A stretch of 55,872 bases of DNA from Patescibacteria group bacterium (GTDB lineage: Bacteria > Patescibacteriota > Patescibacteriia > Patescibacteriales > JAQTRU01), in contig JAQTSG010000001.1 of NCBI GenBank assembly GCA_028711415.1, forward strand, positions 1-55,872, given 5' to 3'. The stretch's first letter is position 1, and every line of letters begins with the position of its first letter. Below are positions 8,762 to 50,877 of the stretch, one piece after another. The position numbers were made by a program, and so were the translations under genes. The notes under the pieces were generated by a model. The model saw nothing but the letters and a program-made list of their open reading frames with translations, ran no database searches and was not told the origin of the DNA.

Positions 8762-8787
8762 GTTATACGATGGCCACTTTAATTTTT
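8762..8787. repeat. Left arm of a 26-bp perfect inverted repeat
   Basis: GTTATACGATGGCCACTTTAATTTTT is the exact reverse complement of 9056-9081. Confidence 0.95.
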
Positions 8788-9044
8788 TATTTCAGTAATT
8801 TCTGTCTTATAATAATTGAAACGCTGATTAATATTATTCCTAATATAATTGGAAATATGAAAAAATTGAAAAGTTGATATGGGCCACCGCCAAAATTGCT
8901 ATATGGTGCCGGACCATTTATGATCCAGATGTAACGTTCATAATTTCCGTGTATCCACCAATAAAAGAAAATCGGACTTAATAATGAGAGGCACCCCATC
9001 CCTAACAACAACGAACTAGATAAATCGAGTAGAAATTTTTTCAT
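8787..9044 (-). CDS. Hypothetical 85-aa two-TM protein bracketed by the inverted repeat
   Basis: ORF with two hydrophobic helices; no SD. Confidence 0.5.
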   Translation of the reverse strand: MKKFLLDLSSSLLLGMGCLSLLSPIFFYWWIHGNYERYIWIINGPAPYSNFGGGPYQLFNFFIFPIILGIILISVSIIIRQKLLK

Positions 9045-9055
9045 ATTTTTGCGTT

Positions 9056-9081
9056 AAAAATTAAAGTGGCCATCGTATAAC
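9056..9081. repeat. Right arm of the 26-bp perfect inverted repeat
   Basis: AAAAATTAAAGTGGCCATCGTATAAC. Confidence 0.95.
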
Positions 9082-9997: not shown

Positions 9998-11119
9998 ATG
10001 AGGTATATGTCAAAGAAAGTTGCCATAGTAATTAGCCCGAATTGGCGGGATTACGCGGAAAAATATCTAGCGGATTGTCTGGAAAGCTTAAGGAAGCAGA
10101 ATTGGGCTGGCGAGTCCAAGATTTTTTTGATTGATAATGAAACCGGCGAGGAAAGTTTTGGTTTATTAAAAAAAATTGTAGAGACGCAAAATCCCCCTGC
10201 CCCCCTCCTGTCTGCGCAGGCAGGTTATCAAGGGGGGGATGTTGAGATTATCAGGAATAAAAATAATGACGGGTTTGCCAAAGGCAATAACGGGGCGATA
10301 GAACTGGCTTTGGAGCAAGGTTTTGATTATGTCGTTTTATTTAACATGGACGCGATAGTTGAAAAAAACTGCGTGAGTGAATTGGTAAAAACCGCGGAAA
10401 GCGATGAAAGAATCGGAGCGGTGCAGGCGCGGCTGATGCTTTGGCCGGAGAAAGAAAAGATAAATAGTTTGGGGAATGCTACGCATTTTCTCGGTTTCGG
10501 CTATTGTATAGGTTATGGGGGAAAAATTGAAAATTTAAAATTGAAAATTGAAAATTCAATCTGCTATCCTTCGGGGGCGGCGGTGCTTTTTAAAGCTGAA
10601 ATTCTAAAGAAAGTTGGGTTATTTGACGAAGAATTCTGGATGTATAACGAAGACCAGGATTTGGGCTGGCGGATCTGGCTGGCTGGTTATAAATGCGTTT
10701 TGGCGCCCGAGGCCGTGGTTTACCACAAATACGAATTTGCCAAGTCTATCAGACAATATTATTGGATGGACAGAAACCGAATCTTGGCAATTTTGAAAAA
10801 TTATCGGCTGCCCACTTTGGTTTTAATTTTTCCGGCATTTTTGGTTATGGAGTTTGGCTTATTATTATTTTCAATAAAGACCGGTTGGTTCAAGGAGAAA
10901 TTGAAAATTTATAAATATTTTTTAACTCCGAAAAATTGGGCGTATATTTTAAAAGTGAGGCGAAAAACGCAAAGCTTGCGTAAGGTTAAAGACAGGGATA
11001 TAGTAAAGATGTTTACGGGGAAAATATGGTATCAGGAGATAGGGGATTGGAAGTTAAAATTAGTTAACCCAGTGTTTCAAGCTTATTGGTGGGCGATGAG
11101 GAAGATAATCTTTTGGTAA
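9998..11119 (+). CDS. Family 2 glycosyltransferase (rhamnosyltransferase-like) carrying two repeat-derived in-frame segments
   Basis: IDNETGE, NNDGFAKGNN, EDQDLGWR motifs; the start may be 10007 instead. Confidence 0.8.
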   Translation: MRYMSKKVAIVISPNWRDYAEKYLADCLESLRKQNWAGESKIFLIDNETGEESFGLLKKIVETQNPPAPLLSAQAGYQGGDVEIIRNKNNDGFAKGNNGAIELALEQGFDYVVLFNMDAIVEKNCVSELVKTAESDERIGAVQARLMLWPEKEKINSLGNATHFLGFGYCIGYGGKIENLKLKIENSICYPSGAAVLFKAEILKKVGLFDEEFWMYNEDQDLGWRIWLAGYKCVLAPEAVVYHKYEFAKSIRQYYWMDRNRILAILKNYRLPTLVLIFPAFLVMEFGLLLFSIKTGWFKEKLKIYKYFLTPKNWAYILKVRRKTQSLRKVKDRDIVKMFTGKIWYQEIGDWKLKLVNPVFQAYWWAMRKIIFW

Positions 11120-11207
11120 ATTTTCAATTAACAATTATCAATTTTCAAACAATTTTCAATGATTAAATTTTTAATTCTAAACGTACGGAATTGAAAATTA
11201 AAAATTG
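11119..11207. repeat. AT-rich heptamer-word inverted repeat (AAATTGA/TCAATTT word)
   Basis: TTTTCAATT...TTCAAACAATTTTCAAT ... GAATTGAAAATTAAAAATTG. Confidence 0.8.
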
Positions 11208-11212
11208 CCTTC

Positions 11213-12013
11213 ATGGATATAAGCATCATAATTTTAAACTATAAAAGCCGGGGGCTTACTTTAAACTGCGTTAAATCAATTAAGGAGGCGGATTTTAGCA
11301 ATTTAAGATATGAAATAATCGTCGTGGATAATAATTCTGATGATGGTATTGGTGAAATTTTGGCCTGGCAGTATCCGGAGATTAAATTTATTCAGAACAA
11401 GAAAAATTTAGGTATGGGCGCGGGTAATAATGTCGGCCTAAAAAAATCGGAAGGAAAATATATGGTGGTAATGAACCCAGACACGATAGCTTTTCCGGAT
11501 ACTTTCAGGAAGATGCATGAGTTTATGGAAGCTAACTCCGAAGTCGGCCTGGCCGGCCCGAAGCAGTTTTATCCGGACCGGTCTGTTCAAAATTCCTGCT
11601 ATCGGTGGTATAATTTACTTACACCGGTTTACCGACGCACGCCCTTAGGAAAGTTTAAGTTCGCGCGAAGAGATGTGGCCAGATTTTTAATGAAAGATTT
11701 TGATCACAATGAAAAGAGGGAAGTGGATTGGCTTTTGGGCTCATTTTTATTCTGCCGCCGGGCTTGCCTTGACCAGATTGGACTTTTTGACGAAAGGTTT
11801 TTTATGTATTTTGAAGATACTGATCTTTGCCGTCGGGCTTCAAGCCGGGGCTGGAAAGTGGTGTACTATCCGGAAAGCCAGATTATTCATAATCACAAAA
11901 GGGAAAGCGCGGAAACGCTCTGGTATAAATTTCTCTGGAATAAGACAAGCCGGACGCATATCATTTCCTGGCTGAAGTATTTGAAGAAATGGAGGAACGC
12001 GCATAACGCATAA
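11213..12013 (+). CDS. Family 2 glycosyltransferase
   Basis: MDISIIILNYK, VVDNNSDDG, VMNPDT, YFEDTDLC motifs; the stop codon lies inside the first GCATAAC repeats. Confidence 0.85.
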   Translation: MDISIIILNYKSRGLTLNCVKSIKEADFSNLRYEIIVVDNNSDDGIGEILAWQYPEIKFIQNKKNLGMGAGNNVGLKKSEGKYMVVMNPDTIAFPDTFRKMHEFMEANSEVGLAGPKQFYPDRSVQNSCYRWYNLLTPVYRRTPLGKFKFARRDVARFLMKDFDHNEKREVDWLLGSFLFCRRACLDQIGLFDERFFMYFEDTDLCRRASSRGWKVVYYPESQIIHNHKRESAETLWYKFLWNKTSRTHIISWLKYLKKWRNAHNA

Positions 12014-12128
12014 CGCATAACGCATAACGCATAACGCATAACGCATAACGCATAACGCATAACGCATAACGCATAACGCATAACGCATAACGCATAACGC
12101 ATAACGCATAACGCATAACGCATAACGC
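12001..12128 (+). repeat. Tandem heptanucleotide microsatellite (GCATAAC) x18
   Basis: Counted directly: 18 perfect units 12001-12126 plus a partial unit. Confidence 0.95.
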
Positions 12129-12202
12129 TCTTCTTCCTTAAAAGGTTTTTGAAAAAATAATTTTCTAATACCTATCATCTAACACCTAACATCTAAAAAA
12201 TT

Positions 12203-13066: not shown

Positions 13067-13140
13067 TTTATATCGCATATCACCAATCGCATAATCATAA
13101 CAAAAAAGGCGTCCCAAAAGGATGCTCTTTTTTAATTTAA

Positions 13141-13262
13141 AATTTCTAATTTTAAATTTTCAAACAATTTTCAATTTTTTAATTTTCAAAACTTGGGGAA
13201 ATTTAAAAATTAGAAATTGAGTCATTAAAAATTGTTTAGAAATTGAAAATTGTAAATTAGAA
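13141..13262. repeat. AT-rich heptamer-word inverted repeat (AAATTGA word)
   Basis: Left arm ...TTTTCAAACAATTTTCAAT..., right arm ...ATTGTTTAGAAATTGAAAATTG... Confidence 0.8.
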
Positions 13263-13281
13263 GTTATTTGCCATATGGCGA

Positions 13282-14718
13282 TTATTGTATCTCCAGTTTA
13301 TATAGTCCTTCCTGGTTTCCGATTTTGGCGCCGAAATAGAGGATTTCTCCTTCCGGGTCAAGGGAGAGGGAATAAATTTTTTCCACTTTTATCAGTTCGG
13401 TTGTATTTCTTTTTTCCCTCTCATCAAGCTCAATCATATTGATAGTTTTGTCCGTAGAATAAATTACATAATTTTTACTGGGATGCCAGAGCACATCAGC
13501 AATCGTTTCGCTGATTCTGGTTAGGATTTTTTTATTGGCTTTACCCAAGAGAGAAGCGCTTGAGTCCATATCAAGAAGCCAGATTTCAAAGTCATTGGCG
13601 TAAAGGAGCTTGTTGTCGTCAAGCCACTCGGAATATTTTAAATTATTTACGATTTCTTTTATGGGGTTGATGAGGGCGAAAGGGTCAATTAAATAAAGAA
13701 GCTCGTGGTCGCTGTCATAGAGATTAATAAGGTTATGGCCGGGATTTATCAGGCGGTAGGCGGCGGAGAAAGGAAGGTTTATTTCTTTTGTCACTTCCTT
13801 ATTTTTTAAAGAAATTCCTTTTAATTTTAAAGTTCGGTTTATTCCGGAAATGGAGAAAATATAATCATTCTTTACCAGATAATCATAATAATCTTCCCCC
13901 TCGGCCAGAATTTTTCTGATTTTAGTGTTTAAATCAAGGTAGCCGATGGAGTTGGCGGATTGATAGTAAATAGTATTGCTATCCGCCCCCCATTTAAAAT
14001 TATTTACCTGTTTGCCGAGAAGATCATTTAAGTAAATTGTTTTGTCTCCATTTTTTAAATCAAAAATAACTCTTCCGGCAATAATTTTGGCGCTGTCCGG
14101 CGACCAGATAATCGGCGAGGTTGGTTCAAATCTTACTTTGAGGGAAGAGAGATCAACAAAGGAGAGAATATTGCCGCCGGTTTCCGCGATAGAAATTTTT
14201 TTCTCATTGAGAATGAAAAAGTATCTTTTGTTCGGCGATTGTTCGACCCTTCTTAGGGGCAGGCGGGAAAAGTTATCTTCTTCCGGAATAAGGTTAGCTA
14301 TTTGCAGAGGCAGGTCTTTTTTAAATAAATAAACGTCTTCGGCGTAAGTCGCCTGGCCCGGCTCAACCGTCAATTTTTTCTCCCACGGCCAGTAGCCGGG
14401 AAGTTCCAGTCTTATATTATATTCCCCAGGCAGGAAATTTTTTATTTTAGCCGGTGTTTTTATGTAGCTTTGCTCTTTGTTGAAAAATTTTTTAAAAAAT
14501 AATTGGCTGGGTTTGTTATCTATAAAAATTTTCGCGCCGCGCGGAGAAGTATCAAAAATAAACATTCCGGTTTTCTGCAGGGAATTGCTAAAACTAGGCG
14601 GCCAGCCTAATTTTATTTTGTAGCCGGACGCGTAAAGGATAAGCCAGGGGGTAGCGACAAAAAAGATGATAACAAAAAAAAGAAAAAGAATTCGACGTAT
14701 TCTAAGAGTCATAAGCAT
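13282..14718 (-). CDS. Membrane-anchored PEGA-domain / beta-propeller-like protein
   Basis: N-terminal TM; PEGA-like TSPRGAKIFIDNKP...LPGEYNIRLELPGYWPWEKKLTVEPGQ; the remainder is repeat-like beta-rich sequence. Confidence 0.65.
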   Translation of the reverse strand: MLMTLRIRRILFLFFVIIFFVATPWLILYASGYKIKLGWPPSFSNSLQKTGMFIFDTSPRGAKIFIDNKPSQLFFKKFFNKEQSYIKTPAKIKNFLPGEYNIRLELPGYWPWEKKLTVEPGQATYAEDVYLFKKDLPLQIANLIPEEDNFSRLPLRRVEQSPNKRYFFILNEKKISIAETGGNILSFVDLSSLKVRFEPTSPIIWSPDSAKIIAGRVIFDLKNGDKTIYLNDLLGKQVNNFKWGADSNTIYYQSANSIGYLDLNTKIRKILAEGEDYYDYLVKNDYIFSISGINRTLKLKGISLKNKEVTKEINLPFSAAYRLINPGHNLINLYDSDHELLYLIDPFALINPIKEIVNNLKYSEWLDDNKLLYANDFEIWLLDMDSSASLLGKANKKILTRISETIADVLWHPSKNYVIYSTDKTINMIELDEREKRNTTELIKVEKIYSLSLDPEGEILYFGAKIGNQEGLYKLEIQ

Positions 14719-14724
14719 TTTAAA

Positions 14725-14910
14725 CTCTAAATCCTAATATCTAAATTCTAAACAAATCCAAAATTCTCACCGCCTCGGCGGGATCCCGCCCCCCTATAAA
14801 TTTTATAGTAATGTGGCGGGAAAATTACCAAATTTTCAAAAAAATTTTTGGATTTTTGTCATTTGAGAATTTGATATTGTTTAGGATTTAGGATTTAGGG
14901 CTTAGGATTT
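14725..14910. repeat. Long imperfect inverted repeat (AAATCCT word) enclosing a GC-rich double hairpin
   Basis: Left arm CTCTAAATCCTAATATCTAAATTCTAAACAAATCCAAAATTCTC; right arm GAGAATTTGATATTGTTTAGGATTTAGGATTTAGGGCTTAGGATTT. Confidence 0.85.
14768..14825 (+). repeat. CACCGC-hairpin element, copy a
   Basis: CACCGCCTCGGCGGGATCCCGCC-N22-GTGGCGGGAAAAT. Confidence 0.85.
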
Positions 14911-16180
14911 ACAAATTGAGGGTTCCAATTCTTTTAATATCGGCACCAAGGGCGCGCAGCCGTCCGTCAATATCTTCATAGCCCCGGTCTATCTGGTAAA
15001 TGTTGTCAATTTCCGTCTGGCCGGAAGCGATCAAAGCGGCGATTAAGATGCCGATGCCGGCCCGCAAATCCGGGCTGGTAAGTTTTTTCCCGAAAAGTCT
15101 GGCCGGGCCGTTAACAACCACGCGGTGCGGGTCGCACATCATAATATCAGCGCCCATCTGCGTAAGGTTATCAACGTAAAGGAGGCGGCGGTCATAAATC
15201 GTTTCATGGATCAGGCAGGAACCGGCCGCTTGCGTCATAAGAACCGTATAAGGCGGCTGCAGGTCGGTCGGGAAACCGGGGTATTCATGAGTTTTAATGC
15301 TATAAGGTTTTATTTTCTTAGCTTCTTTAATTTTCAAAAAGTCTTTGCCAATCTCAAAAGGCACGCCGATTTTATCAAAAATAGAAAGAAGCGCCCGCAC
15401 ATGTTCCGGTTCGCAATCGGTAATGGTAATATTGGATTTAGTGGCCGCGGCCATGATAGCAAAAGAGCCGGTTTCAATGCGGTCTGGGATTATTTTAAAA
15501 TCGCCGGCGCTGATTTTTTCCACTCCTTCTACGGTAATAGTCGGCGTGCCCGCGCCTTTAATTTTTGCTCCTTGTCCATTCAGGTAATCAGCCAGCGCCT
15601 TAATTTCCGGTTCCATAGCGCAGTTTTTTAAGACCGTGGTGCCTTGAGCTAAAACCGCTGTCATCATTAGACTTTCCGTGGCCGTCACGCTTATAATCGG
15701 AAAGAAAGAATTACAACCCTTTAATTTTTTCGCTTTCAGGTGATAATAATTGTCGCTTACTTCAATTTCAGCGCCTAAACATTTAAAGCCGTCCAAAAAC
15801 AAATCAATCGGCCGGCCGCCGGCGCCGATAACGCAGCCGCCGGGATGGGGAAACCTTACCTCGCCGAACCTGGCTAAAATCGGGCCGACAAACATTATTG
15901 AAGCCCTGAATTTATTGGCAAATTCCGGGTTAAGCTCAAATTTGTTAATATTGGCAGTAGAAATTTCCAGACGGTCTCCCTGCCAGTCTGTTTCCGCGCC
16001 CAGGTCAAGAAGAAGATGCAGGGCTTTATCTATATCCTCAATCTTAGGCAGGTTGGAGATGGAGATTTTTTCCCTGGAAAGAATGGCCGCGGGAATAATC
16101 TTCAGAGCGGCATTTTTAGCTCCTTTTACCCTTATGGCTCCGGCTAATTTTTTTCTTCCTTCAATTATGAATTTTGACAT
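14909..16180 (-). CDS. murA: UDP-N-acetylglucosamine 1-carboxyvinyltransferase
   Basis: 423 aa; KNAALKI, active-site loop HPGGCVIGAGGRPID, C-terminal YEDIDGRLRALGA. Confidence 0.95.
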   Translation of the reverse strand: MSKFIIEGRKKLAGAIRVKGAKNAALKIIPAAILSREKISISNLPKIEDIDKALHLLLDLGAETDWQGDRLEISTANINKFELNPEFANKFRASIMFVGPILARFGEVRFPHPGGCVIGAGGRPIDLFLDGFKCLGAEIEVSDNYYHLKAKKLKGCNSFFPIISVTATESLMMTAVLAQGTTVLKNCAMEPEIKALADYLNGQGAKIKGAGTPTITVEGVEKISAGDFKIIPDRIETGSFAIMAAATKSNITITDCEPEHVRALLSIFDKIGVPFEIGKDFLKIKEAKKIKPYSIKTHEYPGFPTDLQPPYTVLMTQAAGSCLIHETIYDRRLLYVDNLTQMGADIMMCDPHRVVVNGPARLFGKKLTSPDLRAGIGILIAALIASGQTEIDNIYQIDRGYEDIDGRLRALGADIKRIGTLNL

Positions 16181-16192: not shown

Positions 16193-16246
16193 TCACCGCT
16201 TCAGCGGGATCCCGCCTTCATAAGTTTAATATAGTGGCGGGAAAAT
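16193..16246 (+). repeat. CACCGC-hairpin element, copy b
   Basis: TCACCGCTTCAGCGGGATCCCGCC-N18-GTGGCGGGAAAAT. Confidence 0.85.
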
Positions 16247-16397
16247 AATAAAATAACAAAAAATTATGTTTATATCATAGCTCATATTTAATAAAATTTC
16301 AACTTGTTGTCAATTTTGTTCGTTGGGAGTAAAATATAGAAGAATTATTAATATAGATAATTTGTAAATTTGTGATGAATTTGTAATTTGTAATGTT

Positions 16398-17249: not shown

Positions 17250-17284
17250 TTAGCAATATGAATTATTTGTTATAGATTCGTTTT

Positions 17285-17380
17285 ATTACAAATCTACAAA
17301 TTATTTCACAAATTCACAAATACCGAGTAGATTCTTTTTGCTAGAATTTGTATATTTGTAATAGATTTGTAATTTGTAAT
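17285..17380. repeat. AT-rich heptamer-word inverted repeat (TTTGTAA word)
   Basis: ATTACAAATCTACAAATTATTTCACAAATTCACAAATA ... AATTTGTATATTTGTAATAGATTTGTAATTTGTAAT. Confidence 0.85.
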
Positions 17381-17382
17381 CA

Positions 17383-17568
17383 TTGTGGATATCTGATGTT
17401 GACTTAAAAAATTTTGTTTGTTAAGATATGATTGATTCTGGAAGAAATCGTATAAATTAAATAAAAACAGTTTTTTGTTTCCTTGTCATACCTCTTAGCC
17501 GGATTATGTCCGGAATAACTAGGGGGTTAATTTTTGTTTTTAAGAAAAATATTTTTTTGTGGGTGGGG
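17383..17568 (+). repeat. Direct repeat copy 1 (atp promoter + leader)
   Basis: Near-identical to 17987-18175, offset 604 bp. Confidence 0.9.
17399..17427 (+). promoter_or_regulatory. Promoter TTGACT-17-TAAGAT (atp P1)
   Basis: Direct read inside repeat copy 1. Confidence 0.65.
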
Positions 17569-17701: not shown

Positions 17702-17929
17702 ATGGACGCAGAAACTTTGAGACATTTATCCGCCGCGGTTGCCATCGGTCTCGGTGCCATCGGCCCCGGTATCGGAGAAGGTAATGTGGCTAGCCGGGCC
17801 TTAGAAGCTATTGGTCGCAATCCGGAAGCGGCTAGTAAAATTACGCCCGTGACATTCATTACTATGGCTATTATTGAATCGGTTGCTATTTATGCCTTAG
17901 TCGTTGCTTTGATTATTCTTTTTTCTTAG
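17702..17929 (+). CDS. atpE: F0F1 ATP synthase subunit c, paralogue 1
   Basis: 75 aa hairpin protein; GRNPEA loop, ion-binding Glu in AIIESVAIY. Confidence 0.9.
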   Translation: MDAETLRHLSAAVAIGLGAIGPGIGEGNVASRALEAIGRNPEAASKITPVTFITMAIIESVAIYALVVALIILFS

Positions 17930-17986: not shown

Positions 17987-18175
17987 TTGTGGATATCTGA
18001 TGTTGACTTAAAAAATTTTGTTTGTTAAGATATGATTGATTCTGGAAGAAATCGTATAAATTAAATAAAAACAGTTTTTTGTTTCCTTGTCATACCTCTT
18101 AGCCGGATTATGTCCGGGATAATTAGGGGGTTAATTTTTGTTTTTAAAAAAAAGAAATATTTTTTGTGGGTGGGG
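17987..18175 (+). repeat. Direct repeat copy 2 (atp promoter + leader)
   Basis: Near-identical to 17383-17568. Confidence 0.9.
18003..18031 (+). promoter_or_regulatory. Promoter TTGACT-17-TAAGAT (atp P2)
   Basis: Direct read inside repeat copy 2. Confidence 0.65.
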
Positions 18176-19310: not shown

Positions 19311-19357
19311 TCCGCCAGAGGCGGACCCGCAATATAAAAATTTATGTGGCGGGAAAT
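19311..19357 (+). repeat. CACCGC-hairpin element, copy c (variant)
   Basis: TCCGCCAGAGGCGGACCCGC-N16-GTGGCGGGAAAT. Confidence 0.7.
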
Positions 19358-19372
19358 AATAAATTAAATTTT

Positions 19373-19600
19373 ATGGAAACAGAAGCTATAAAAGCCCTTG
19401 CCGCCGGTATTGCCATGGGATTTGGGGCTATCGGTCCGGCTGTGGGAGAAGGTTATGTGGCGGGTAGAGCCCTGGAAGCCATTGGTCGCAACCCGGAGGC
19501 GGCTGACAAAATTACACCTCTGATGTTCGTAACTATGGCTATTTGCGAATCTACCGGTATTTATTCCCTGGTAATCGCCCTGATTGTCATTTTTGGTTAG
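19373..19600 (+). CDS. atpE: F0F1 ATP synthase subunit c, paralogue 2
   Basis: 75 aa from ATG 19373; GRNPEA loop; AICESTGIYSLVIAL. Confidence 0.9.
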   Translation: METEAIKALAAGIAMGFGAIGPAVGEGYVAGRALEAIGRNPEAADKITPLMFVTMAICESTGIYSLVIALIVIFG

Positions 19601-20166: not shown

Positions 20167-20196
20167 ACCCCGTTAGAAATCAATTTCTAACGGGGT
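20167..20196. repeat. Perfect 14-bp-arm palindrome ACCCCGTTAGAAAT / ATTTCTAACGGGGT
   Basis: Direct read between atpF and atpH; a third half-site lies at 20212-20225. Confidence 0.9.
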
Positions 20197-20831: not shown

Positions 20832-22409
20832 ATGGAAAAAGAAAACAAAAAAATTTCTAACGGGGTGAACAATACTAAAGACTTTATTGTTGAGCAAATA
20901 AAAGAGCAGATAAGCGGATTTAAAGCGGAGGCGGAAGAAAAAACTTTCGGCCAGGTAACTGAAGTCGGCGACGGCATTGCCCGGGTTTCCGGCCTGTCCG
21001 ACGCTATGATGTCGGAAATGCTTGAATTTAAAACAGCCAGCGGGCCGGCTTATGGCGTAGTCCTTAACCTGGAAGAAGACAGCGTGGGCGCTATTATTTT
21101 GGGCGACGCTTCTTCAATTAAGGAAGGCGACGAGGTAATCGCTTTAAAGAGGATTTTGGAGGTTCCGGTCGGGGATGAACTGGTCGGCCGGGTAGTTAAT
21201 CCCCTAGGGAAGGCTTTAGACGGAAAAGGGGATTTAAAGACGAAAAAGTCCTATCCGATTGAAAAAATCGCTCCCGGAGTAATCGCCCGCGAATCAGTCA
21301 ACCAGCCGGTCCAGACCGGGATTAAGGCCGTTGATGCCATGATTCCAATCGGTCGGGGCCAAAGAGAACTGATAATCGGCGACCGCCAGATTGGTAAAAC
21401 CGCGATTGCCATTGACGCGATTATCAACCAGAAGGGTCAGCATATGAAATGCATTTACGTGGCGATCGGGCAGAAAGAGTCAAAAGTCGCTTCTATCGTA
21501 GCGCGCCTGGAGAAATTCGGCGCCATGAAATACACGACCGTGGTGATGGCCGGCGCTTCTGATCCGGCTCCGCTTCTTTATATCGCCCCTTACGCCGGTT
21601 GCGCTATGGCTGAATATTTTTTGGACAAAGGCGAAGATGTCTTAATAATTTATGATGATTTGTCAAAACACGCGGTGTCTTACCGCGAGGTTTCTTTGTT
21701 ACTTCGCCGGCCGCCGGGACGCGAAGCTTTTCCGGGAGACGTTTTTTATCTCCATTCCCGTTTGTTGGAAAGGGCTTGCAAATTAAATAAAGATTACGGC
21801 GGCGGCTCCATTACGGCTTTACCTTTAATTGAAACTCAGGCCGGAGACGTTTCCGCTTATATTCCAACCAATGTCATTTCCATAACTGACGGCCAAATTT
21901 ATCTGGAATCAGACCTTTTTTACAAAGGCAACCGCCCGGCTATAAATGCCGGTTTGTCCGTTTCCCGCGTCGGTAACAAAGCGCAAATCAAGGCTATGAA
22001 AAAAGTCGCTGGCCGGATGCGGTTAGAGGCGGCCCAATACAGGGAACTTGAAGCTTTTGCCCAGTTCGGCTCGGATCTAGACAAAGAAACGAAAGAAAAA
22101 CTGGAAAGGGGCCGGCGTATGATTGAAGTCTTAAAGCAGGACCAATACGTGCCGATGCCGGTAGGTCAGCAGGTAGTTATTTTCTTTGCTTTGATTTCCG
22201 GATTTTTAGATAATGTGCCGGTAGAAAAGGTCAAAGATTTTGAAGCTGGTCTCCTGGAGTATGTCCAGGACGTGAATTCTGATTTAGTAAAAGAAATAGA
22301 AAAAACCGGAGAATTAACTGAAAGCGAAGAAAAAAAGCTGGAAAAAACTATTAAAGATTATAAAGATACGCTGGATTATTTAGAGAGTGATAAAGTTAAA
22401 AGTTCATAA
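20832..22409 (+). CDS. atpA: F0F1 ATP synthase subunit alpha
   Basis: GDRQIGKT Walker A, ~15-aa N-terminal extension containing a repeat half-site. Confidence 0.95.
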
Positions 22410-22464
22410 AGTTATAAAGTTAAATACTTTAAGACTTTTTACTTTTAACTTTATAAACTAAGAG

Positions 22465-23439
22465 ATGGCTAAGACAAAAGAAATCCAAAGAAGAATAAAA
22501 TCCATAGGCAACACGAAAAAAATTACGCGGGCTATGGAAATGGTGGCGGCTTCAAAGATGAAAAAGGCGGTGGAGTCGGTTTTGCGCACCCGGACTTATG
22601 CTAATTTAAGCTGGACTACGATTTTAAATCTTTCCGCCGCGGTTGATTCCGGCAGAAATCTTCATCCGCTTCTTTCGGCCAGGAAAGAAATAAAAAAAGT
22701 GGGAATAATTTTATTTTCTTCAAACCGCGGCCTTTGTGGCGGGTTTAACGCCGCGATTGTCAATAAAGCGGTTGATTCAGCAAAAAAGCACGAGAAAAAC
22801 GAGAAGGGAGATAAAATAGAAAATGAATTTATTATAGTCGGGAAAAAAGGCCGGTCGGTTTATTCCCGTTTTGGCTATAAAATCTCGGCGGCTTTTGAAA
22901 AGCAGGATACTTGCACCGAGGTTAGGGAAGTAAGCTCACTGGCTCGTTTAATAATTGATGATTTTTTAGCCGGCAAATGCGATAAAATAATGGTGGCTTA
23001 TTCGGACTTCGTGAGCGCTACCCGGCAAGTGCCCCGGGTTAAGCAGCTTCTTCCTATAGACATATCGGCTCATGAAGAGTTTTTGGGCGTAGTCGGGGAA
23101 GATAGCCGGGTTGGGGCGGATAGGCAATATCTTAAAGGCAAAGAAGATAAATATTTACATGATGAGAAAAAAAATAAATATATTTTTACCTATGAGCCAG
23201 GTCCGGAAGAAGTTTTAAATGAGATGCTGCCTAGAGTTTTGGAAATCCAGCTTTTTCAGGCTTTGTTGGAGTCCAACGCTTCCGAGCACAGCGCCCGCAT
23301 GGCGGCTATGCATCAGGCCACGGACGCGGCCGGGGATTTAGTTGATGAGCTTACCTTATTTTACAATAAAGCCAGGCAGGCCGCGATTACCTCGGAGATA
23401 GCGGAAATATCGGCGGGAGCAAATGCGTTGAAAGGTTAA
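22465..23439 (+). CDS. atpG: F0F1 ATP synthase subunit gamma
   Basis: IKSIGNTKKITRAMEMVAASKM start, C-terminal ITSEIAEISAGANAL. Confidence 0.9.
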   Translation: MAKTKEIQRRIKSIGNTKKITRAMEMVAASKMKKAVESVLRTRTYANLSWTTILNLSAAVDSGRNLHPLLSARKEIKKVGIILFSSNRGLCGGFNAAIVNKAVDSAKKHEKNEKGDKIENEFIIVGKKGRSVYSRFGYKISAAFEKQDTCTEVREVSSLARLIIDDFLAGKCDKIMVAYSDFVSATRQVPRVKQLLPIDISAHEEFLGVVGEDSRVGADRQYLKGKEDKYLHDEKKNKYIFTYEPGPEEVLNEMLPRVLEIQLFQALLESNASEHSARMAAMHQATDAAGDLVDELTLFYNKARQAAITSEIAEISAGANALKG

Positions 23440-23572
23440 AATAAAAAATAATAAAATAAAAAAATAATATAAAAATTAAAATAATTTAAGTATTCTTCCT
23501 GACTTTAGTCAGAGTTAAGAAGATGAATTAAAACATTTTAACTCCCACTAAATTGGGGTAGAAATAGAGAAT

Positions 23573-23639: not shown

Positions 23640-23933
23640 TTAAAATGAATGAAGCTCTGCCTGATGGATTTTTTCCGGATATTTCTCGGCCTCTGCGGGG
23701 AGGTTAATATCAGCAAATCCGAGGATTTCCGCGGCTCGTTGAAAAGTACGAAGGATGTTTGCGTCAATGCGCGCTCGGTCGAAGTGAATTACCCCTGGGT
23801 TTCCCATGGTTGTTTCTATAAACCAGCAGATAAGAGCATCTCTTCGATTTTTTTCTTCCGATTTCCGGATAATTTTCACAATATCATCAACAATTTTGAT
23901 GAACTTTGGGTCTTCAAATTGGTTACCCGACAT
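23640..23933 (-). CDS. Orphan 97-aa protein encoded antisense inside the atp operon
   Basis: ATG 23933 preceded by AAGGAGAG 9 nt upstream; own promoter and terminator; no family recognised. Confidence 0.6.
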   Translation of the reverse strand: MSGNQFEDPKFIKIVDDIVKIIRKSEEKNRRDALICWFIETTMGNPGVIHFDRARIDANILRTFQRAAEILGFADINLPAEAEKYPEKIHQAELHSF

Positions 23934-24013
23934 GGTGGCACTCTCCTTTTCTAAGAAATGAACAAAGATATTATTGTTATCATGAATAAAAAATAGTTTA
24001 TTATTAATAAGAA

Positions 24014-24042
24014 AATATATCATAAGATTAATAATTTGTCAA
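24014..24042 (-). promoter_or_regulatory. Promoter TTGACA-17-TATATT on the minus strand
   Basis: Reverse complement of 24014-24042. Confidence 0.6.
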
Positions 24043-24062
24043 TTCTTAAAAATTAAAGATAA

Positions 24063-25517
<1,455 letters not shown>

Positions 25518-25525
25518 TTAGTCAA

Positions 25526-25610
25526 CTAGTTAAAAGTTTGTAAAGTTTATAAAGTTGAAAGTCCTCCTATTCGGACTTTATAACTTTTAACTTTATGACT
25601 TTATAACTAG
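25526..25610. repeat. AT-rich heptamer-word inverted repeat (AAGTTAT/ATAACTT word)
   Basis: CTAGTTAAAAGTTTGTAAAGTTTATAAAGTTGAAAGTCC ... GGACTTTATAACTTTTAACTTTATGACTTTATAACTAG. Confidence 0.85.
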
Positions 25611-25620
25611 CTGTTGAACT

Positions 25621-26058: not shown

Positions 26059-26091
26059 GAGGTTGTTATATTTATTAAAACCGGATATTTA

Positions 26092-26181
26092 GTTCCCCTC
26101 CTTAATTGAGGAGGGGACAGGGGTGGTGGGGCTGGTGATAAAATCAGACCACCCCCAACCCCTCCTTGTCTAAGGAGGGGA
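26092..26181. repeat. GC-rich composite element, copy A (module order permuted)
   Basis: CCCCTCCTTAATTGAGGAGGGG, CAGGGGTGGTGG ... ACCACCCCC, CCCCTCCTTGTCTAAGGAGGGG. Confidence 0.85.
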
Positions 26182-26306: not shown

Positions 26307-26317
26307 AGCTATAAGAT

Positions 26318-26344
26318 TTAGCACTCTAAGGTCCTAAGTGCTAA
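26318..26344 (+). promoter_or_regulatory. CIRCE operator (HrcA binding site)
   Basis: TTAGCACTC-N9-AAGTGCTAA versus consensus TTAGCACTC-N9-GAGTGCTAA; located just downstream of the promoter. Confidence 0.85.
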
Positions 26345-26397
26345 TAATTAGCAAGCTAATAATTTATACGTCATAACCATATTTATAACCTTTAGCG

Positions 26398-26447
26398 CCT
26401 GTCTGCGCAGGCAGGTTATGCGATATGCGTTATGCGATATGCGTTAT
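26398..26447 (+). repeat. CCTGTCTGCGCAGGCAGG palindrome followed by (GTTATGCGATATGC)x2.3, abutting the groES ATG
   Basis: Direct read; the first 22 nt are identical to 10207-10228. Confidence 0.9.
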
Positions 26448-34196: not shown

Positions 34197-34216
34197 ATTA
34201 GATTATTTAATAATCA

Positions 34217-34322
34217 AACCACCCCTAGCCCCTCCTTATCTAAGGAGGGGGAAATATAACAAAACATTTTTTCTAGTTCCCCTCCTCGGTTGAGGAGGGG
34301 GCAGGGGTGGTGGGTGGGTGGT
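34217..34322 (+). repeat. GC-rich composite element, copy B
   Basis: ACCACCCCT, CCCCTCCTTATCTAAGGAGGGG, spacer, CCCCTCCTCGGTTGAGGAGGGG, CAGGGGTGGTGG. Confidence 0.9.
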
Positions 34323-35910: not shown

Positions 35911-36315
35911 ATGAATTTTTCTACCAGGACAACTTACGGGCTTCGGGCCATGATTAGATTGGCGGGGCGCAAAGGCCCGGAATCTCTGTCTCTTCCCAAT
36001 ATCGCCAAAGCGGAAAATATTTCTTTGGGCTATTTGGAAAGATTATTTTCTGATTTGAAAAAAGGCGGTTTAGTTCAATCGGGCAAGGGCGTCAAGGGCG
36101 GCTATAAACTAGCAAAGCCAGCTGAAAGAATAGAGGTTTATGAAATAGTTAAATCTTTGGAGGGCAAGATGTCTCCATTCCATTGTCTGGACGAAGGTGG
36201 TAAAATTTATTGTAAGGTCAGCTGCCGATGCGGAGCGACCAAAGTTTTAATTAAAGTTCAAGAGGCCGTTAAAAAGACTTTGAAAGGAATAAAATTGAGC
36301 GACTTAGTCGCATAA
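35911..36315 (+). CDS. Rrf2 family transcriptional regulator (IscR-like)
   Basis: MNFSTRTTYGLRAMIRLA wHTH start; C-terminal Cys cluster HCLDEGGKIYCKVSCRCG; ATG 35911 preferred over the repeat-encoded extension. Confidence 0.85.
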   Translation: MNFSTRTTYGLRAMIRLAGRKGPESLSLPNIAKAENISLGYLERLFSDLKKGGLVQSGKGVKGGYKLAKPAERIEVYEIVKSLEGKMSPFHCLDEGGKIYCKVSCRCGATKVLIKVQEAVKKTLKGIKLSDLVA

Positions 36316-36334
36316 CGCATAACGAGAAGGTCTT

Positions 36335-37168: not shown

Positions 37169-37215
37169 TTTCGCATAACGCGTAACGCACAATGCATAAC
37201 ATGGTGCATAAAAAT

Positions 37216-37584
37216 ATGTCTTATTCCAAGAAAGTTTTAGAGCATTTTAAAAATCCCCATAACCAGGGCGTGATTAAGAATGCGGACGCGATCGGCAAGG
37301 TCGGAAATCCTACTTGCGGAGACGTCATGAAAATTTACATAAAAGTCAAAGATAATAAGATAAAAGATATAAAATTTGAGACTCTCGGTTGTGCCGCGGC
37401 CATTGCGGTGTCTTCGGCCCTGACCGATATGGTAAAGGGCAAAACCATAGAAGAAGCTCTAAAAGTAACAAAAGATAAAATTGTAAAAGATTTAGGCGGC
37501 CTGCCTCCGGTAAAAGTCCATTGTTCAATGCTCGGAGTTGAGGCCTTGCACGAAGCGATAAAGAATTACGAATCCAGTAATTAG
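37216..37584 (+). CDS. iscU: Fe-S cluster scaffold protein IscU/NifU N-terminal type
   Basis: GNPTCGDVM, LGCAAAIA, VHCS cysteine motifs. Confidence 0.9.
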   Translation: MSYSKKVLEHFKNPHNQGVIKNADAIGKVGNPTCGDVMKIYIKVKDNKIKDIKFETLGCAAAIAVSSALTDMVKGKTIEEALKVTKDKIVKDLGGLPPVKVHCSMLGVEALHEAIKNYESSN

Positions 37585-37652
37585 TAATTGGAAATTTGTA
37601 ATTTGGAAATTGTTTAAAAATTTAAAATTTAAAATTTAAAATTAATAAGAAT

Positions 37653-38219
37653 ATGGCAGAAGTAAAAATTTTAATGAGGGGCTATACTTCGGCTGAAGAA
37701 GTGGAGGTAGCCGGAGAAGAAAGAACCTGCCCGACTATTAGTTTAGTGAGGGACGGAGGGAAAACCATAATTGTTGACCCGGGAGTTTTAAGAAACCCGG
37801 ATGACCTAAGGGAAAAATTAAGGGAAGACGGCTTAACGACGGATGATATAGATTTTATTTTTTTAACCCATTCCCATCTTGACCATTACCGCAATACCGG
37901 TATGTTCGCCAAGGCAAAAGTTATAGAATATTTCGGGATTTGGGACGGGAATAAATGCGATGATTGGCAGGAACAGTTTAGCGAAGATATCAAAATTATA
38001 AAAACGCCCGGGCATGATTCCAGTTCTTTGACTCTTTTGGTGGAGACGGCTAAGGGAACAGTAGCGGTTTGCGGGGACGTTTTTTGGAAAGAAAATTATC
38101 CGGAAAACGACCCTTACGCTTCGGATCCGGCTAAACTAGCCGAGAGCCGGAAAAAAGTTTTAGAATCTGCTGATTTTGTCATTCCCGGGCACGGAAGTAT
38201 GTTTAAAACTAAAAAGTAA
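37653..38219 (+). CDS. MBL-fold metallo-hydrolase
   Basis: LTHSHLDH (HxHxDH) motif, TPGHD, IPGHG. Confidence 0.8.
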   Translation: MAEVKILMRGYTSAEEVEVAGEERTCPTISLVRDGGKTIIVDPGVLRNPDDLREKLREDGLTTDDIDFIFLTHSHLDHYRNTGMFAKAKVIEYFGIWDGNKCDDWQEQFSEDIKIIKTPGHDSSSLTLLVETAKGTVAVCGDVFWKENYPENDPYASDPAKLAESRKKVLESADFVIPGHGSMFKTKK

Positions 38220-38264
38220 TACCTGCCTGCCGGCAGGCAGGAAATAATAAAATAATATAAAAAT

Positions 38265-38537
38265 ATGAAAAAAGTTAAAAATTTAGAGGATAAACCCTCC
38301 TCTGCTAAAGCTACGGAGGACAAGATTAAAAAAGTTATAGAGAAAGTCCGGCCAAGTTTACAAGCCGACGGCGGCGATATTAGGTTTGTCGGCTGGTATC
38401 CGGAAACCGGAATCGTTCAGGTGAGTTTAGTCGGCCACTGCGCGCATTGCCCGATGTCGCAGATGACTTTAAAGCAGGGAATCGAGGCGGAAATTAAGAA
38501 GGTGGTACCCGAGGTTAAAGAAGTGATAAACACTTAA
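38265..38537 (+). CDS. NifU C-terminal (Nfu-type) domain protein
   Basis: VRPSLQADGGDI and GHCAHCPMSQMTLK (CxxC) motifs. Confidence 0.85.
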   Translation: MKKVKNLEDKPSSAKATEDKIKKVIEKVRPSLQADGGDIRFVGWYPETGIVQVSLVGHCAHCPMSQMTLKQGIEAEIKKVVPEVKEVINT

Positions 38538-38634
38538 TTTTCAATTATCAATTTTTAAACAATTTTCAATGTATTAATTTCCAAACTACGAACTTTGTTG
38601 TTCATTGAAAATTAGAAATTGAAAATTGTAAATT
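38537..38634. repeat. AT-rich heptamer-word inverted repeat (AAATTGA word)
   Basis: TTTTCAATTATCAATTTTTAAACAATTTTCAATG ... CATTGAAAATTAGAAATTGAAAATTGTAAATT. Confidence 0.85.
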
Positions 38635-38635
38635 T

Positions 38636-39928
38636 ATGAAAATATATTTTGACCACAGCGCTACCACGCCAATAGACAAAAAAGTGCTAAAAGAAATGAC
38701 GCCGTATTTTGGCGAGAAGTTCGGCAATCCTTCGTCAATCCATAGTTTTGGCCAGGCGGCCGTAGCCGGGGTTGATAAAGCCAGGGAACAAGTAGCTAAG
38801 TTTTTAAATTGCGAGCCGGGAGAAGTTATCTTCACTTCCGGAGCGACTGAGTCTGATAATCTGGCTTTGCGGGGCGTTATTGGCGCCATAAAAAGACAGG
38901 GCATAGCCAAGCCGCATGTCATCACGACTTTAATTGAACATGATGCTGTGCTTGCCCCCTGCTTAGAGATGGAAAGAGAAGGAGTGGAAATTACTTTTTT
39001 ACCGGTTAAACCCAATGGGGTAGTGGATTTAGAAAAATTAAAGAAAGCTATAAAAGAAAATACGGTCTTGGTTTCCGTAATGTACGTTAACAGCGAAGTC
39101 GGCAGTATCCAACCGATCAGGGAAATCGGAAAAATTATAGAAAAGATAAATAAAGATAAGTTGAATGAATGGAAAAAGGCAAGAACCAAAGACCGGGGAG
39201 AGAAACCCCGACCGATTTATTTTCACACGGACGCGACCCAGGCCCTGAATTTCCTGCCTGCCGATACGAAATATCTGCATGTTGATCTATTAAGTTTGTC
39301 CGGGCATAAAATTTACGGGCCAAAAGGCATAGGGGCGCTCTATGTTAAAAATGGCGTTCCGCTTAAGGCAATCCAGCTAGGCGGGCATCATGAGAAAAAT
39401 CTCCGTAGTGGCACGTTAAATGTTCCCGGAATAGTTGGGTTAGGCGCGGCAGTAAGTCTGCTAGACAAAAAAACAAGAAAACCCCACTACGCCGAGGCTT
39501 CGAGGGGCAAGCAAGAAAACAAAAAAACATGGGAAGGTACGAATAAGAAAATTGCTCGGTTAAGGGACATGTTGGTTGATGGGGTTATGAAGAATATCCC
39601 AGACGTTATCCTGAATACTGACCGGGAGAATTCTACTCCGGCGCACGCCCATTTTTCCTTTTTAGGCGTGGAAGGGGAGTCAATTTTAATCGCCCTTGAT
39701 TTAGAAGGAATTGCGGTTTCTACGGGTTCGGCCTGCGCTTCCGGTTCGCTTAAAGCTTCGCATGTTTTAATCGCCATGGGCATAAAAAAGGAAATTGCTC
39801 ATAATTCCATCCGTTTCAGCTTAGGCAATAATAATACGGAAGCGGAAATAAAAAGAGTGATAAAGGTTTTGCCGCCGATTATAAAGAAGTTAAGAGGCAT
39901 GAATCCGGACTACGGTCAAGAAAACTAA
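38636..39928 (+). CDS. Cysteine desulfurase (NifS/IscS class) with two low-complexity insertions
   Basis: SGHKIYGPKG PLP-lysine motif; STGSACASG active-site Cys loop. Confidence 0.9.
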   Translation: MKIYFDHSATTPIDKKVLKEMTPYFGEKFGNPSSIHSFGQAAVAGVDKAREQVAKFLNCEPGEVIFTSGATESDNLALRGVIGAIKRQGIAKPHVITTLIEHDAVLAPCLEMEREGVEITFLPVKPNGVVDLEKLKKAIKENTVLVSVMYVNSEVGSIQPIREIGKIIEKINKDKLNEWKKARTKDRGEKPRPIYFHTDATQALNFLPADTKYLHVDLLSLSGHKIYGPKGIGALYVKNGVPLKAIQLGGHHEKNLRSGTLNVPGIVGLGAAVSLLDKKTRKPHYAEASRGKQENKKTWEGTNKKIARLRDMLVDGVMKNIPDVILNTDRENSTPAHAHFSFLGVEGESILIALDLEGIAVSTGSACASGSLKASHVLIAMGIKKEIAHNSIRFSLGNNNTEAEIKRVIKVLPPIIKKLRGMNPDYGQEN

Positions 39929-39952
39929 AAAGCAAAAAAGCAAGAAAACAAA

Positions 39953-39986
39953 GGGGTTCGACCCCCAAGCTTGGGGGTCGAACCCC
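39953..39986. repeat. Palindrome GGGGTTCGACCCCC-AAGCTT-GGGGGTCGAACCCC (probable terminator)
   Basis: Direct read; a second copy lies inside miaA at 49117-49149. Confidence 0.9.
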
Positions 39987-40026
39987 TATTATATATTTTG
40001 CTAAAATAAGCTATATTTTTTAACGC

Positions 40027-44341: not shown

Positions 44342-44457
44342 TGTTTAATAATATTATCGGCTGGCGGTTCGGAATGGCAATTTTTAAATAGGTCTACTTC
44401 TATCATAGCAAATTTCAAATTTCCTTGCCATTATTGATATTTTTTGCTAAGATAAGG

Positions 44458-44542: not shown

Positions 44543-44574
44543 CTATTTAAGATGTCCTTAGTTTAAAAGTTAAT

Positions 44575-50862: not shown

Positions 50863-50877
50863 ATTTTTCAAACAAAG

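Follow-up and report, generated by a model that had tools for sequence, protein, structure and literature searches.

Inverted heptanucleotide arrays at gene junctions of a Patescibacteria contig and their possible relation to PF05635 gene cassettes

What are the long imperfect palindromes that fill gene junctions of a Patescibacteria genome, and how did they come to lie there? The question is raised by the spacer between murA and its neighbour on contig JAQTSG010000001.1 (assembly GCA_028711415.1), of which we analysed a stretch of 55,872 nucleotides, hereafter called the window. The palindrome of this spacer, the focal element, consists of two AT-rich arms, both arrays of one 7-nt word (AAATCCT), around a loop that contains GC-rich mini-hairpins. 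Its arms are 45 nt long each, 73% complementary and 107 nt apart, and the spacer folds with −64.6 kcal/mol (z=−6.4). A sequence-only reading of the window had described palindromes of this kind at many junctions, had placed them at operon boundaries, and had argued for local generation rather than spread. On balance, though only just, we think it probable that they are miniature members, devoid of an open reading frame (ORF), of palindromic insertion cassettes with inverted tandem heptanucleotide arms.

Self-matches in the intergenic DNA of the window (7.7 kb) peak at lags of 7, 14, 21 and 28 nt; coding DNA gives a 3-nt signal only. The value at lag 7 is 0.351, compared to about 0.30-0.31 at the neighbouring lags, and lag-7 matches lie above dinucleotide shuffles with z=12.2. 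A run detector found 34 arrays at lag 7, compared to 3.45 (maximum 6) in shuffles and to 5-15 for each of the other lags, and the same heptamer arrays were recovered by Tandem Repeats Finder. For most intergenic arrays, an inverted copy of the same word lies within 10-110 nt. At least six word families are dispersed in this way over 56 kb, mostly at non-coding loci (Table 1). The heptamer periodicity proposed by the sequence-only reading is thus a true excess over shuffled sequence. It was also right that paired arms of 7-nt words occupy many gene junctions, most arrays being members of inverted pairs, that both arms of one locus are built from the same word, and that arms reach the atpA C-terminus and the murA stop; the words which it gave are present at all the loci listed. 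The GC-rich mini-hairpins that it noted in the loops were seen at the focal locus and in many loops from metagenomes.

The regularity is not uniform. In the AAGTTAT and CACAAAA families the periodicity is partly of 8-9 nt, and the hairpins at 11119, 16361, 37582 and 52538, mostly one-sided arrays, are weak (z of the minimum free energy, MFE, from −1.5 to −2.6). An AAACAA(T) core had been said to recur in many of the words. Window-wide, WAAACAAWT was found 13 times for 10.4 expected, and AAACAA(T) was therefore rejected as a universal core; what stands is its recurrence as a signature unit specific to certain families. The GC-rich loop motif GGGATCCCGCC was not enriched either. Another GC-rich motif, made of two hairpins (CACCGCYTCRGCGGGATCCCGCC...GTGGCGGGAAAAT), occurs at 14768-14826 and 16195-16245, one copy lying in the loop of the focal palindrome. 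The two copies lie 5′ of murA and of the next minus-strand gene. The motif has no Rfam match, and its core 13-mer is also present in L082 and L083, two contigs that are 99.99% identical to each other, with no indels.

Separate loci share more than a word. The elements at 11119, 13129 and 38536 have ~50 nt in common, including the irregular unit of the series ...AATTTTC-AAACAAT-TTTCAAT..., and the first of them matches 38542-38571 at 30 of 31 nt. Another pair of segments, 24048-24137 and 50860-50950, shows 90% identity across 91 nt, arms and loop included. The composite array of the focal arm, (TAAATCC)n-TAAACAAAT-(TCAAAAT)n, is found again in frame inside miaB, in an array to which the focal arm is ~86% identical. 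Dispersal extends to other genomes. When a metagenome collection was scanned with the 20-mer ATTTTYAAACAATTTTCAAT, at least 131 sites were found, in at least 120 contigs. Among the matches listed, heptamer units stand immediately upstream of 93 of 128 sites, and an inverted arm is found no more than 170 nt away from 66 of the 128, compared to 3 in shuffles. In contig L125, two copies flank nusB; they are identical through core and loop, and their outer heptamer units differ in number and in variants. Relatives have part of the vocabulary in common: AAAATTG was found in L003 and L016, CGCATAA in L003, TTTGTAA in L002, and the focal AAATCCT family in L028 and also in L127.

Orthologous junctions show that elements are gained and lost. 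In the 5′ untranslated region of the PMT_2 gene, the window holds an extra hairpin of ~100 nt between flanks that are conserved in the syntenic contig L082. The nifU/iscS junction is occupied by a mini hairpin in the window, and in L082 by a PF05635 gene cassette with CGCATAA arms. The Tmk/Adk junction has hairpins in both genomes, of AAATGAC/AAAATCC words in the window and of AAATTCA in L082, with complementary arms in each, so that words do co-vary between the arms of orthologous spacers, as had been anticipated. The atpD/atpC hairpin is missing in L001, L004, L005 and L008, among other relatives, and hairpins of other words take this place in L002 and L003. The atpA/atpG spacer is 1-6 nt long in most relatives; in general, their orthologous atp spacers measure −1 to 10 nt and have no hairpin. 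We conclude that the heptamer hairpins are additions, not ancestral operon architecture.

A finer comparison is given by L203, the ortholog of positions 37315-39273 of the window (~2 kb, 79.6% identity overall). The nifU/iscS hairpin is 90% identical between the two, one 7-nt unit being the sole length difference, and the 3′ half of the array at 37576-37650 is almost invariant. This means that the arms are under sequence constraint or homogenised, and that unit number shifts by slippage. Arm evolution owes a part to slippage in a 7-nt register: differences of exactly 7 nt in unit number separate the L125 copies from each other, and L203 from the window.

Under a purely local origin, such slippage would build an array at each spacer and intrastrand template switching would copy the arm, nothing moving between loci. 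The exact 7-nt differences between copies and orthologs agree with it, as do the perfect (CGCATAA)x18 array of the window, a symmetry of the arms that fits a DNA-level process (see below), and the excess of heptamer repeats in many bacteria, which is attributed to slippage (PMC4679880, PMC4692102). Concerted change agrees as well: one of the miaB arrays is built from GAAACCC in the window, and its L082 ortholog has GAAATCC in all units, a concerted turnover. However, irregular units and loops are common to separate loci, the composite array is common to a hairpin arm and a coding insert, and the ~100-nt insertion relative to L082 is clean, the empty site being without a seed. The association with one protein family, described below, is not predicted either. 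As a complete account, local origin is largely refuted by the ~50 nt common to three loci and by the spread of the 20-mer, with its palindromic architecture, over at least 120 contigs. We regard it as highly improbable, and in this respect the sequence-only reading was not confirmed.

Clustering of the proteins from the listed metagenome contigs gave, as the most recurrent family, a protein of ~115 aa. It passes the curated cut-offs of PF05635 ('23S rRNA intervening sequence protein', S23p) and TIGR02436 ('four helix bundle protein'), its nearest solved structure is XCC0516 (PDB 2GSC), and it has a weak similarity to Avd of diversity-generating retroelements (DGR). All 9 of its 9 homologues of family A (word AATTTTC) lie inside a family-A palindrome, with the 5′ arm directly ahead of the gene and the 3′ arm behind it; both flanks could be read in 8 of them, and one runs off its contig. 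Genes of the Candidate Phyla Radiation (CPR) were also sampled independently, by synteny (L082), from a set of atpD contigs (L028), or by protein homology (L204, L205, L211, two in L213, L215, L218 and L219). On inspection, inverted heptamer arrays were visible around 10 out of 10. The arm word is CGCATAA for L082 and GTTCACA for L028, and the second L213 gene is flanked by AAAGTTN, the word of the atp-spacer hairpins of the window.

A tblastn search with the CPR protein against 72,556 plasmids gave cyanobacterial matches only (Nostoc, Calothrix, Trichormus/Anabaena, Scytonema, Aulosira and others). Clear flanking heptamer arrays were present at 4 of the 5 loci inspected. In three they are paired, (GGGAACA)n with (TGTTCCC)n, (GGGTGTA)n with (TACACCC)n and (AGGTGAC)n with (GTCACCT)n, and in one the array, (CTCTGCC)n, is one-sided; at the fifth locus, L222, a clear (AGGAGTC)n array stands upstream and no more than a weak arm downstream. 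On plasmid pANA02 of Anabaena sp. 90 (L224, NC_019429.1, 44265-44633), the PF05635-type gene with its (AGGTGAC)n/(GTCACCT)n arrays is located between cas6 and cas4 of a CRISPR-Cas locus. Protein lineages at least 65% identical have a common word family, and divergent lineages have different words. The junctions occupied by cassettes are varied (gatC/gatA, radA/glycosylase, nifU/iscS, epimerase/ABC and others), which implies mobility over evolutionary time. ORF-bearing cassettes were co-directional with their neighbours in 21 of 21 cases, unlike the ORF-less minis.

Many of the CPR contigs with PF05635 genes are only 0.5-2 kb long. In addition, the only contig found to encode the atpC region elsewhere was an identical one of 1.1 kb (L081), which ends in the hairpin. 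Together they suggest that the repeats routinely break short-read assemblies.

The kinship of the hairpins with these cassettes has to be weighed against several points. No PF05635 gene was found among the ORFs of the window (Pfam), so that the link of the focal AAATCCT family rests on architecture and on the AAACAA unit, not on a cassette of the exact word. The same ORFs include no transposase, recombinase, reverse transcriptase or RAYT (REP-associated tyrosine transposase, REP standing for repetitive extragenic palindrome), and among the recurrent ones of the 594 proteins clustered from the listed contigs (715 kb), no transposase, recombinase, RAYT or reverse transcriptase was present. The element ends abut TAA and ATG, and in these AT-rich repeats no consistent target-site duplication could be read. 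Conservation of an element above its flanks could mean host function, not mobility. We know of no catalytic activity of PF05635 proteins. The nine family-A cases were ascertained via their arm sequence, and the taxonomy of the metagenome contigs is provisional. Finally, an inverted-complement score of the flanks reached at least 40 for 9 of 15 independent PF05635 genes and for 32 of 1035 control genes, the controls being other genes of array-rich contigs, several of them PF05635 genes themselves. L028, L222 and L225 scored near the control median of 18, which gives their arrays no support from this score; tatD in the window, bracketed by the arrays at 16355-16397 and 17283-17382, scored 48.

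One may ask whether the elements are instead classical miniature transposable elements with inverted repeats (MITEs) or REPINs (REP doublets), mobilised in trans by an insertion sequence transposase or a RAYT encoded elsewhere, PF05635 being a passenger or being attracted to the arrays independently. Terminal inverted repeats, small size, dispersed non-coding copies, random orientation and intergenic position would all agree, and the hairpin layout resembles that of REPIN doublets (PMC3116915). This explanation is nevertheless unlikely. Besides the lack of a transposase or RAYT in the window and among the recurrent proteins of the listed contigs, the arms are tandem arrays of variable units and not a fixed terminal inverted repeat, and they have no REP head of the GTAG type. 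Each divergent PF05635 lineage has an arm word of its own, in two phyla, and this fits co-inheritance better than a passenger.

The location and symmetry of the arms bear on a possible role in the host. Elements prefer gene junctions. In 42 co-directional cases among the metagenome matches listed, the element starts at −10 to +15 nt from the preceding stop codon in 29, and ends equally close to the following start codon in 23. This fit from stop to start is the pattern expected from insertion into very short spacers. The junctions are not those of operon boundaries, where the sequence-only reading had put them: elements are found inside operons (atpA/atpG, atpD/atpC and nifU/iscS), and others in divergent and convergent spacers. 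Terminators of the textbook kind, whose GC-rich stem has A- and U-tracts on its flanks, do exist in this genome at convergent gene ends; canonical ones lie at 31069, 41035, 41110, 49520, 52912 and 4025. The heptamer hairpins are long, A/T-rich and without a U-tract, and a scan with the terminator consensus left them uncalled, except for one partial match at 25558. Having no short GC-rich stem with a U-tract, and true terminators looking different, they were ruled out as intrinsic (rho-independent) terminators. A terminator or insulator role had been suggested for them; it does not agree with the many intra-operonic positions, nor with orthologous atp spacers that have no hairpin.

An RNA-functional hairpin is expected to tolerate G·U pairs preferentially. 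On the transcribed strand, arm mismatches amounted to 81 G·U and 76 A·C in 51 metagenome elements (among the matches listed), and to 10 and 9 in the window. MFE values of plus and minus strands showed no consistent bias, and ORF-less elements among the matches listed were oriented sense to transcription in 32 cases and antisense in 31. From the balanced counts of G·U and A·C it follows that arm symmetry is kept at the DNA level. The balance is compatible with RNA-level consequences, yet it argues that RNA pairing does not keep the arms alike.

Selection by the host for RNA elements of some kind (terminators or insulators, 3′ stabilisers, RNase III sites, or devices that bring a stop codon and the following start codon together for translational coupling) is therefore weakened by these counts, in which neither a G·U excess nor an orientation bias is seen. 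It is weakened further by the occupation of divergent and convergent spacers, by the hairpin-free atp spacers of most relatives, by the different structure of canonical terminators, and by the fact that sequence, not merely structure, is conserved across genomes. Still, the elements span the interval from stop codon to next start codon, and they do so in a genome poor in Shine-Dalgarno (SD) motifs: an SD-like motif was seen in only ~6 of 58 genes (58 start codons, window-wide), with A/T-rich leaders, and translation initiation in this host is probably SD-independent. Both atp junctions have hairpins of genome-specific words in several relatives, and conservation of an orthologous element exceeds that of the sequence around it. 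A hairpin between hupS and hupL, of the short tandemly repeated repetitive (STRR) type, has been proposed to work in such a way (PMC2670836). All in all, we consider host-selected RNA elements quite unlikely as the explanation.

Arrays are also present inside reading frames. Four insert regions of miaB are encoded by heptamer arrays, and at the corresponding loops its orthologs show peptides that are heptamer-like and variable. Where the word of an ORF array contains a stop codon, the only substitution is found in the unit that would place it in frame: TAA is changed to GAA, CAA or TAT, and TGA, in a GT2 gene, to TTA or TCA. These in-gene arrays are therefore words of the intergenic type, patched for translation. 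Single arms persist in reading frames once the in-frame stops are patched. For arms in ORFs, among the metagenome matches listed, the stop-free strand prevails by 18 to 4.

Such in-frame arrays are not expected if the elements are non-mobile protein-binding arrays, that is, operator-like or nucleoid-organising sites of a host protein (possibly S23p, or a cold-shock-domain protein) kept for regulation. Binding sites would explain the strong sequence conservation across genomes, the limited vocabulary common to relatives, and arrays that end directly 5′ of start codons; CspB, for its part, binds ~7 nt per monomer (PMC4679880). They would not explain presence and absence at orthologous junctions, different words in close relatives, or near-identical whole copies, loops included, and the flanking genes are without apparent regulon logic. 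We hold this possibility to be very unlikely.

If the hairpins are indeed ORF-less members of the cassettes, the full-length form would be a single ~115-aa PF05635/TIGR02436 gene (S23p, a four-helix bundle and Avd homologue) between the same arms, with several word families per genome, for instance AATTTTC, AAAGTTAT, TAAATCC and CGCATAA. A copying process at the DNA level would have the arms as its cis-acting ends, the unit of inheritance would be the arm together with the gene, and S23p would be the candidate arm-binding factor. Once transcribed, the A/U-rich stem of 30-50 bp may be an RNase III substrate, by analogy with the intervening sequences (IVSs) of 23S rRNA. As RNase III would remove the stem, insertions inside operons and rRNA would be tolerable, and polycistronic mRNAs would incidentally be split. 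A more ambitious version, which we advance tentatively and hold to be rather doubtful, is that heptamer-bounded PF05635 genes and their much commoner ORF-less derivatives form one hitherto unrecognised mobile class across several phyla, uniting 23S IVSs, STRR sequences and junction hairpins. In its strongest form, a pentameric Avd-like protein would read its cognate word, one unit per subunit, and promote copying, and RNase III would remove the stem, which would leave insertions in operons and rRNA without harm.

Table 1. Heptamer elements and arrays of the window (positions in nt; strand where given).
Positions	Strand	Element or array	Location and remarks
10523-10556	+	in-frame (AAAATTG)x4.9	inside GT2 gene; G replaced by T or C wherever TGA in frame
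11119-11210		family-A element	between two GT2 genes; strong 5′ arm, short 3′ arm; hairpin z=−1.7
12000-12128	+	perfect (CGCATAA)x18.4 array	overlaps GT2 stop codon; word is that of the arms of L082-type PF05635 cassettes
13129-13266		family-A palindrome	convergent spacer; 53-nt arms, 75% complementary; adjoins canonical terminator 13108-13133
14718-14914		focal palindrome	between murA (14909-16180, −) and PEGA/beta-propeller gene (13282-14718, −)
14718-14762 / 14870-14914		focal arms, (TAAATCC/TAAATTC)n-TAAACAAAT-(CCAAAAT)	loop with GC-rich hairpins 14768-14826
16355-16397	+	one-sided TTTGTAA array	abuts tatD start codon
17283-17382		ACAAAT/TTTGTAA hairpin	3′ of tatD
22386-22462		AAAGTTAT-family hairpin	atpA/atpG spacer; 5′ arm codes for atpA C-terminus and stop codon
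24046-24126		A-rich heptamer hairpin	5′ of atpD
25520-25620		AAAGTTAT-family hairpin	atpD/atpC spacer; MFE z=−6.7
26417-26447	+	(TTATGCG/ATATGCG) array	ends at groES start codon
26771-26799	+	(GTTATGC) array	ends 3 nt before groEL start codon
32164-32275		AAAGTTAT-family hairpin	divergent spacer; 27-nt arms, 89% complementary
36309-36324	+	(CGCATAA)x2.3	between rrf2 and ykuD genes
37172-37200	+	(CGCATAA)-type array	5′ of nifU_N
37576-37650	+	arrays (GTAATTN)n then GGAAATTGTTTAAAAATT(TAAAATT)n	from nifU_N stop to next start codon
38534-38636		family-A mini element, (AATTTTC)n-AAACAAT-TTTCAAT ... CATTG(AAAATTN)n	fills interval from nifU stop to iscS start
44455-44545		CACAAAA-word hairpin	between conserved promoter region and PMT_2 start codon
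46389-46429	+	(GAATTAA/GATTTAA) array	PMT_2 C-terminus and stop, on to miaB start codon
46739-46803	+	in-frame (AAATTTT)x4.4 and (GAAACCC)x4.1	inside miaB
47023-47054	+	in-frame perfect (AAAGTCA)x4.6	inside miaB; 7-aa insertion relative to closest orthologs
47303-47358	+	in-frame (TAAATCC)n-TAAACAAAT-(TCAAAAT)n	inside miaB; TAA changed to GAA every third unit
47708-47736	+	in-frame (GAATTAA/GATTTAA) array	inside miaB; TAA changed to TAT where in frame
50858-50952		A-rich hairpin, second copy	3′ of gatB
52538-52600	−	one-sided GTAATTN / GGATTT array	abuts gatB start codon
54345-54490		TGACAAA/AAAATCC hairpin	3′ of adk; GC hairpin in loop

The long CGCATAA array of Table 1 has zero mismatches over its 18.4 units and covers the last 14 nt of the GT2 glycosyltransferase ORF. 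It lies 5′ of what looks like a promoter (12149-12178) of an NTP-transferase gene, itself part of a polysaccharide cluster. Its length and perfection suggest a very recent expansion, with a possible phase-variable spacing.

Among the genes of the window (55.9 kb) is a housekeeping set: glycosyltransferases, murA, tatD, the atp operon, groES/EL, a nifU/iscS cluster, miaB, miaA, gatB, tmk and adk. The AtpD protein is 82-83% identical to those of metagenome-assembled genomes of Ca. Falkowbacteria. Over the whole window, Rfam at gathering threshold gave zero matches, rRNA included, and a tRNA scan found none. A canonical CIRCE operator (controlling inverted repeat of chaperone expression), TTAGCACTC-N9-AAGTGCTAA, lies at ~26315-26345, 5′ of groES, between a GC-rich repeat and the TTATGCG array. 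That repeat belongs to a second dispersed type, made of GC-rich nested hairpins (CCCCTCCTTATCTAAGGAGGGG inside ACCACCCC...GGGGTGGT; 34197-34304, 54118-54223 and 26090-26180), two copies of which agree at 93.5% across 108 nt; it is a type apart from the heptamer elements. Palindromes of 30-36 nt, perfect or near-perfect (for instance GGGGTTCGACCCCCAAGCTTGGGGGTCGAACCCC), occur at 39952-39987, 49117-49148, 50044-50076 and 20167-20196. They are unrelated to the heptamer families, and some of them look like bidirectional terminators.

In the atp region, a 189-nt segment is present twice (17383-17568 and 17987-18175, 95.8% identity) and brackets an extra gene for the ATP synthase c subunit. The two atpE copies, at 17702-17929 and 19346-19600, have ~76% nucleotide identity, with an AtpI-like gene and atpB between them. 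An unannotated ORF of 127 aa (23640-24023, −) is inserted between atpG and atpD, on the strand opposite to theirs; an A-rich array (23438-23481) lies on one side of it and the A-rich hairpin at 24046-24126 on the other. A perfect inverted repeat of 26 nt (TTATACGATGGCCACTTTAATTTTT and its complement) encloses another small ORF, for an 85-aa predicted membrane protein with no Pfam match (8787-9044, −, within 8762-9081).

Knowledge of tandem heptamers goes back to 1990, with the STRR sequences, and they are the most over-represented class of long simple sequence repeats (SSRs) in bacteria; that of 23S IVSs and of their S23p ORF goes back to the early 1990s. To our knowledge, neither has an accepted origin or function. 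A testable link between them is offered here, in that one protein family stands between inverted heptamer arrays in Patescibacteria, in plasmids of Nostocales and, by its published description, in the Coxiella IVS. If this link is true, the recurrence of heptamers specifically would be explained, a very large 'hypothetical' family related to the Avd of DGRs would receive a candidate role, and a main origin of insertions, both intergenic and in-frame, would be recognised in the streamlined CPR genomes. In practical terms, such elements fragment CPR assemblies, mislead the calling of start and stop codons, and give conserved enzymes such as MiaB inserted peptides of low complexity.

The STRR heptanucleotide sequences of heterocystous cyanobacteria were reportedly described by Mazel et al. 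in 1990. The sequence-only reading recognised no described repeat class in the window, and on this point it has to be corrected, as both STRR (PMC2670836) and the Coxiella 23S IVS (PMC4990558) are described. In a literature search of incomplete coverage, we found no description of heptamer-armed elements in CPR, and no link of STRR-type arrays in general to PF05635 cassettes. STRR sequences are tandem heptamers that form hairpins between co-transcribed cyanobacterial genes such as hupS and hupL (PMC2670836; heptamers also in PMC4692102). They resemble the window elements by their tandem 7-nt units, by several dispersed and mainly non-coding word families per genome, by opposite-strand arrays that form hairpins between co-transcribed genes, and by a function that has no accepted account. 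The cyanobacterial PF05635 genes flanked by GGGAACA, GGGTGTA and AGGTGAC arrays connect the two. Unlike STRR sequences, which were defined in cyanobacteria, the elements described here come from Patescibacteria, near Ca. Falkowbacteria; their words are AT-rich, their arrays are almost always palindromic pairs filling stop-to-start spacers, and their families are defined by conserved irregular units.

With REPs, REPINs and MITEs (PMC3116915, PMC3184786), they have in common short dispersed extragenic palindromes in either orientation, often within operons and in genome-specific families. The terminal inverted repeats, small size, non-coding nature and multiple copies of MITEs are found here too, and a longer gene-bearing form between the same repeats recalls the RAYT gene flanked by REPs. 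However, REPs are GC-rich palindromes of 20-40 nt with a GTAG head, instead of AT-rich arrays of variable units. The longer form described here encodes PF05635, a four-helix-bundle protein, and not a transposase; no Y1 transposase was found in the window.

Marine Beggiatoaceae have intergenic direct repeats of the heptamer TAACTGA (PMC4679880), Xanthomonas has GGGAATC repeats (PMC4692102), and a general excess of heptamer SSRs in bacteria is credited to Mrazek 2007 by the two papers that cite it (PMC4679880, PMC4692102). There, as in the window, arrays end just 5′ of start codons, are occasionally found in ORFs and vary in length among relatives, with a patchy phyletic distribution that suggests horizontal spread. 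In Beggiatoaceae and Xanthomonas there is mostly one word per genome, in direct arrays, in contrast to the many words, inverted pairs and protein gene of the present elements.

The 23S IVS of Coxiella is described as a selfish element with a 28-bp terminal stem, an S23p ORF and excision by RNase III, with tandem GACAGAT heptamers in a strain-variable number; an old proposal has the ORF serve mobility (PMC4990558). Complementary termini and a long stem, known from the IVSs of Coxiella and Leptospira (PMC4990558), are present in the window elements as well, and the strain-variable heptamers inside the 5′ end of the IVS are a further likeness. RNase III excision belongs to the 23S IVS, and for the 30-50-bp stems it would be expected by analogy. 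IVSs occupy helices 25 or 45 of 23S rRNA; here, protein-gene junctions and 5′ untranslated regions are occupied, and the arms are wholly heptamer arrays. The PF05635 ORF that an IVS carries in its loop is not carried by the window copies, but by their full-length relatives with the same arms.

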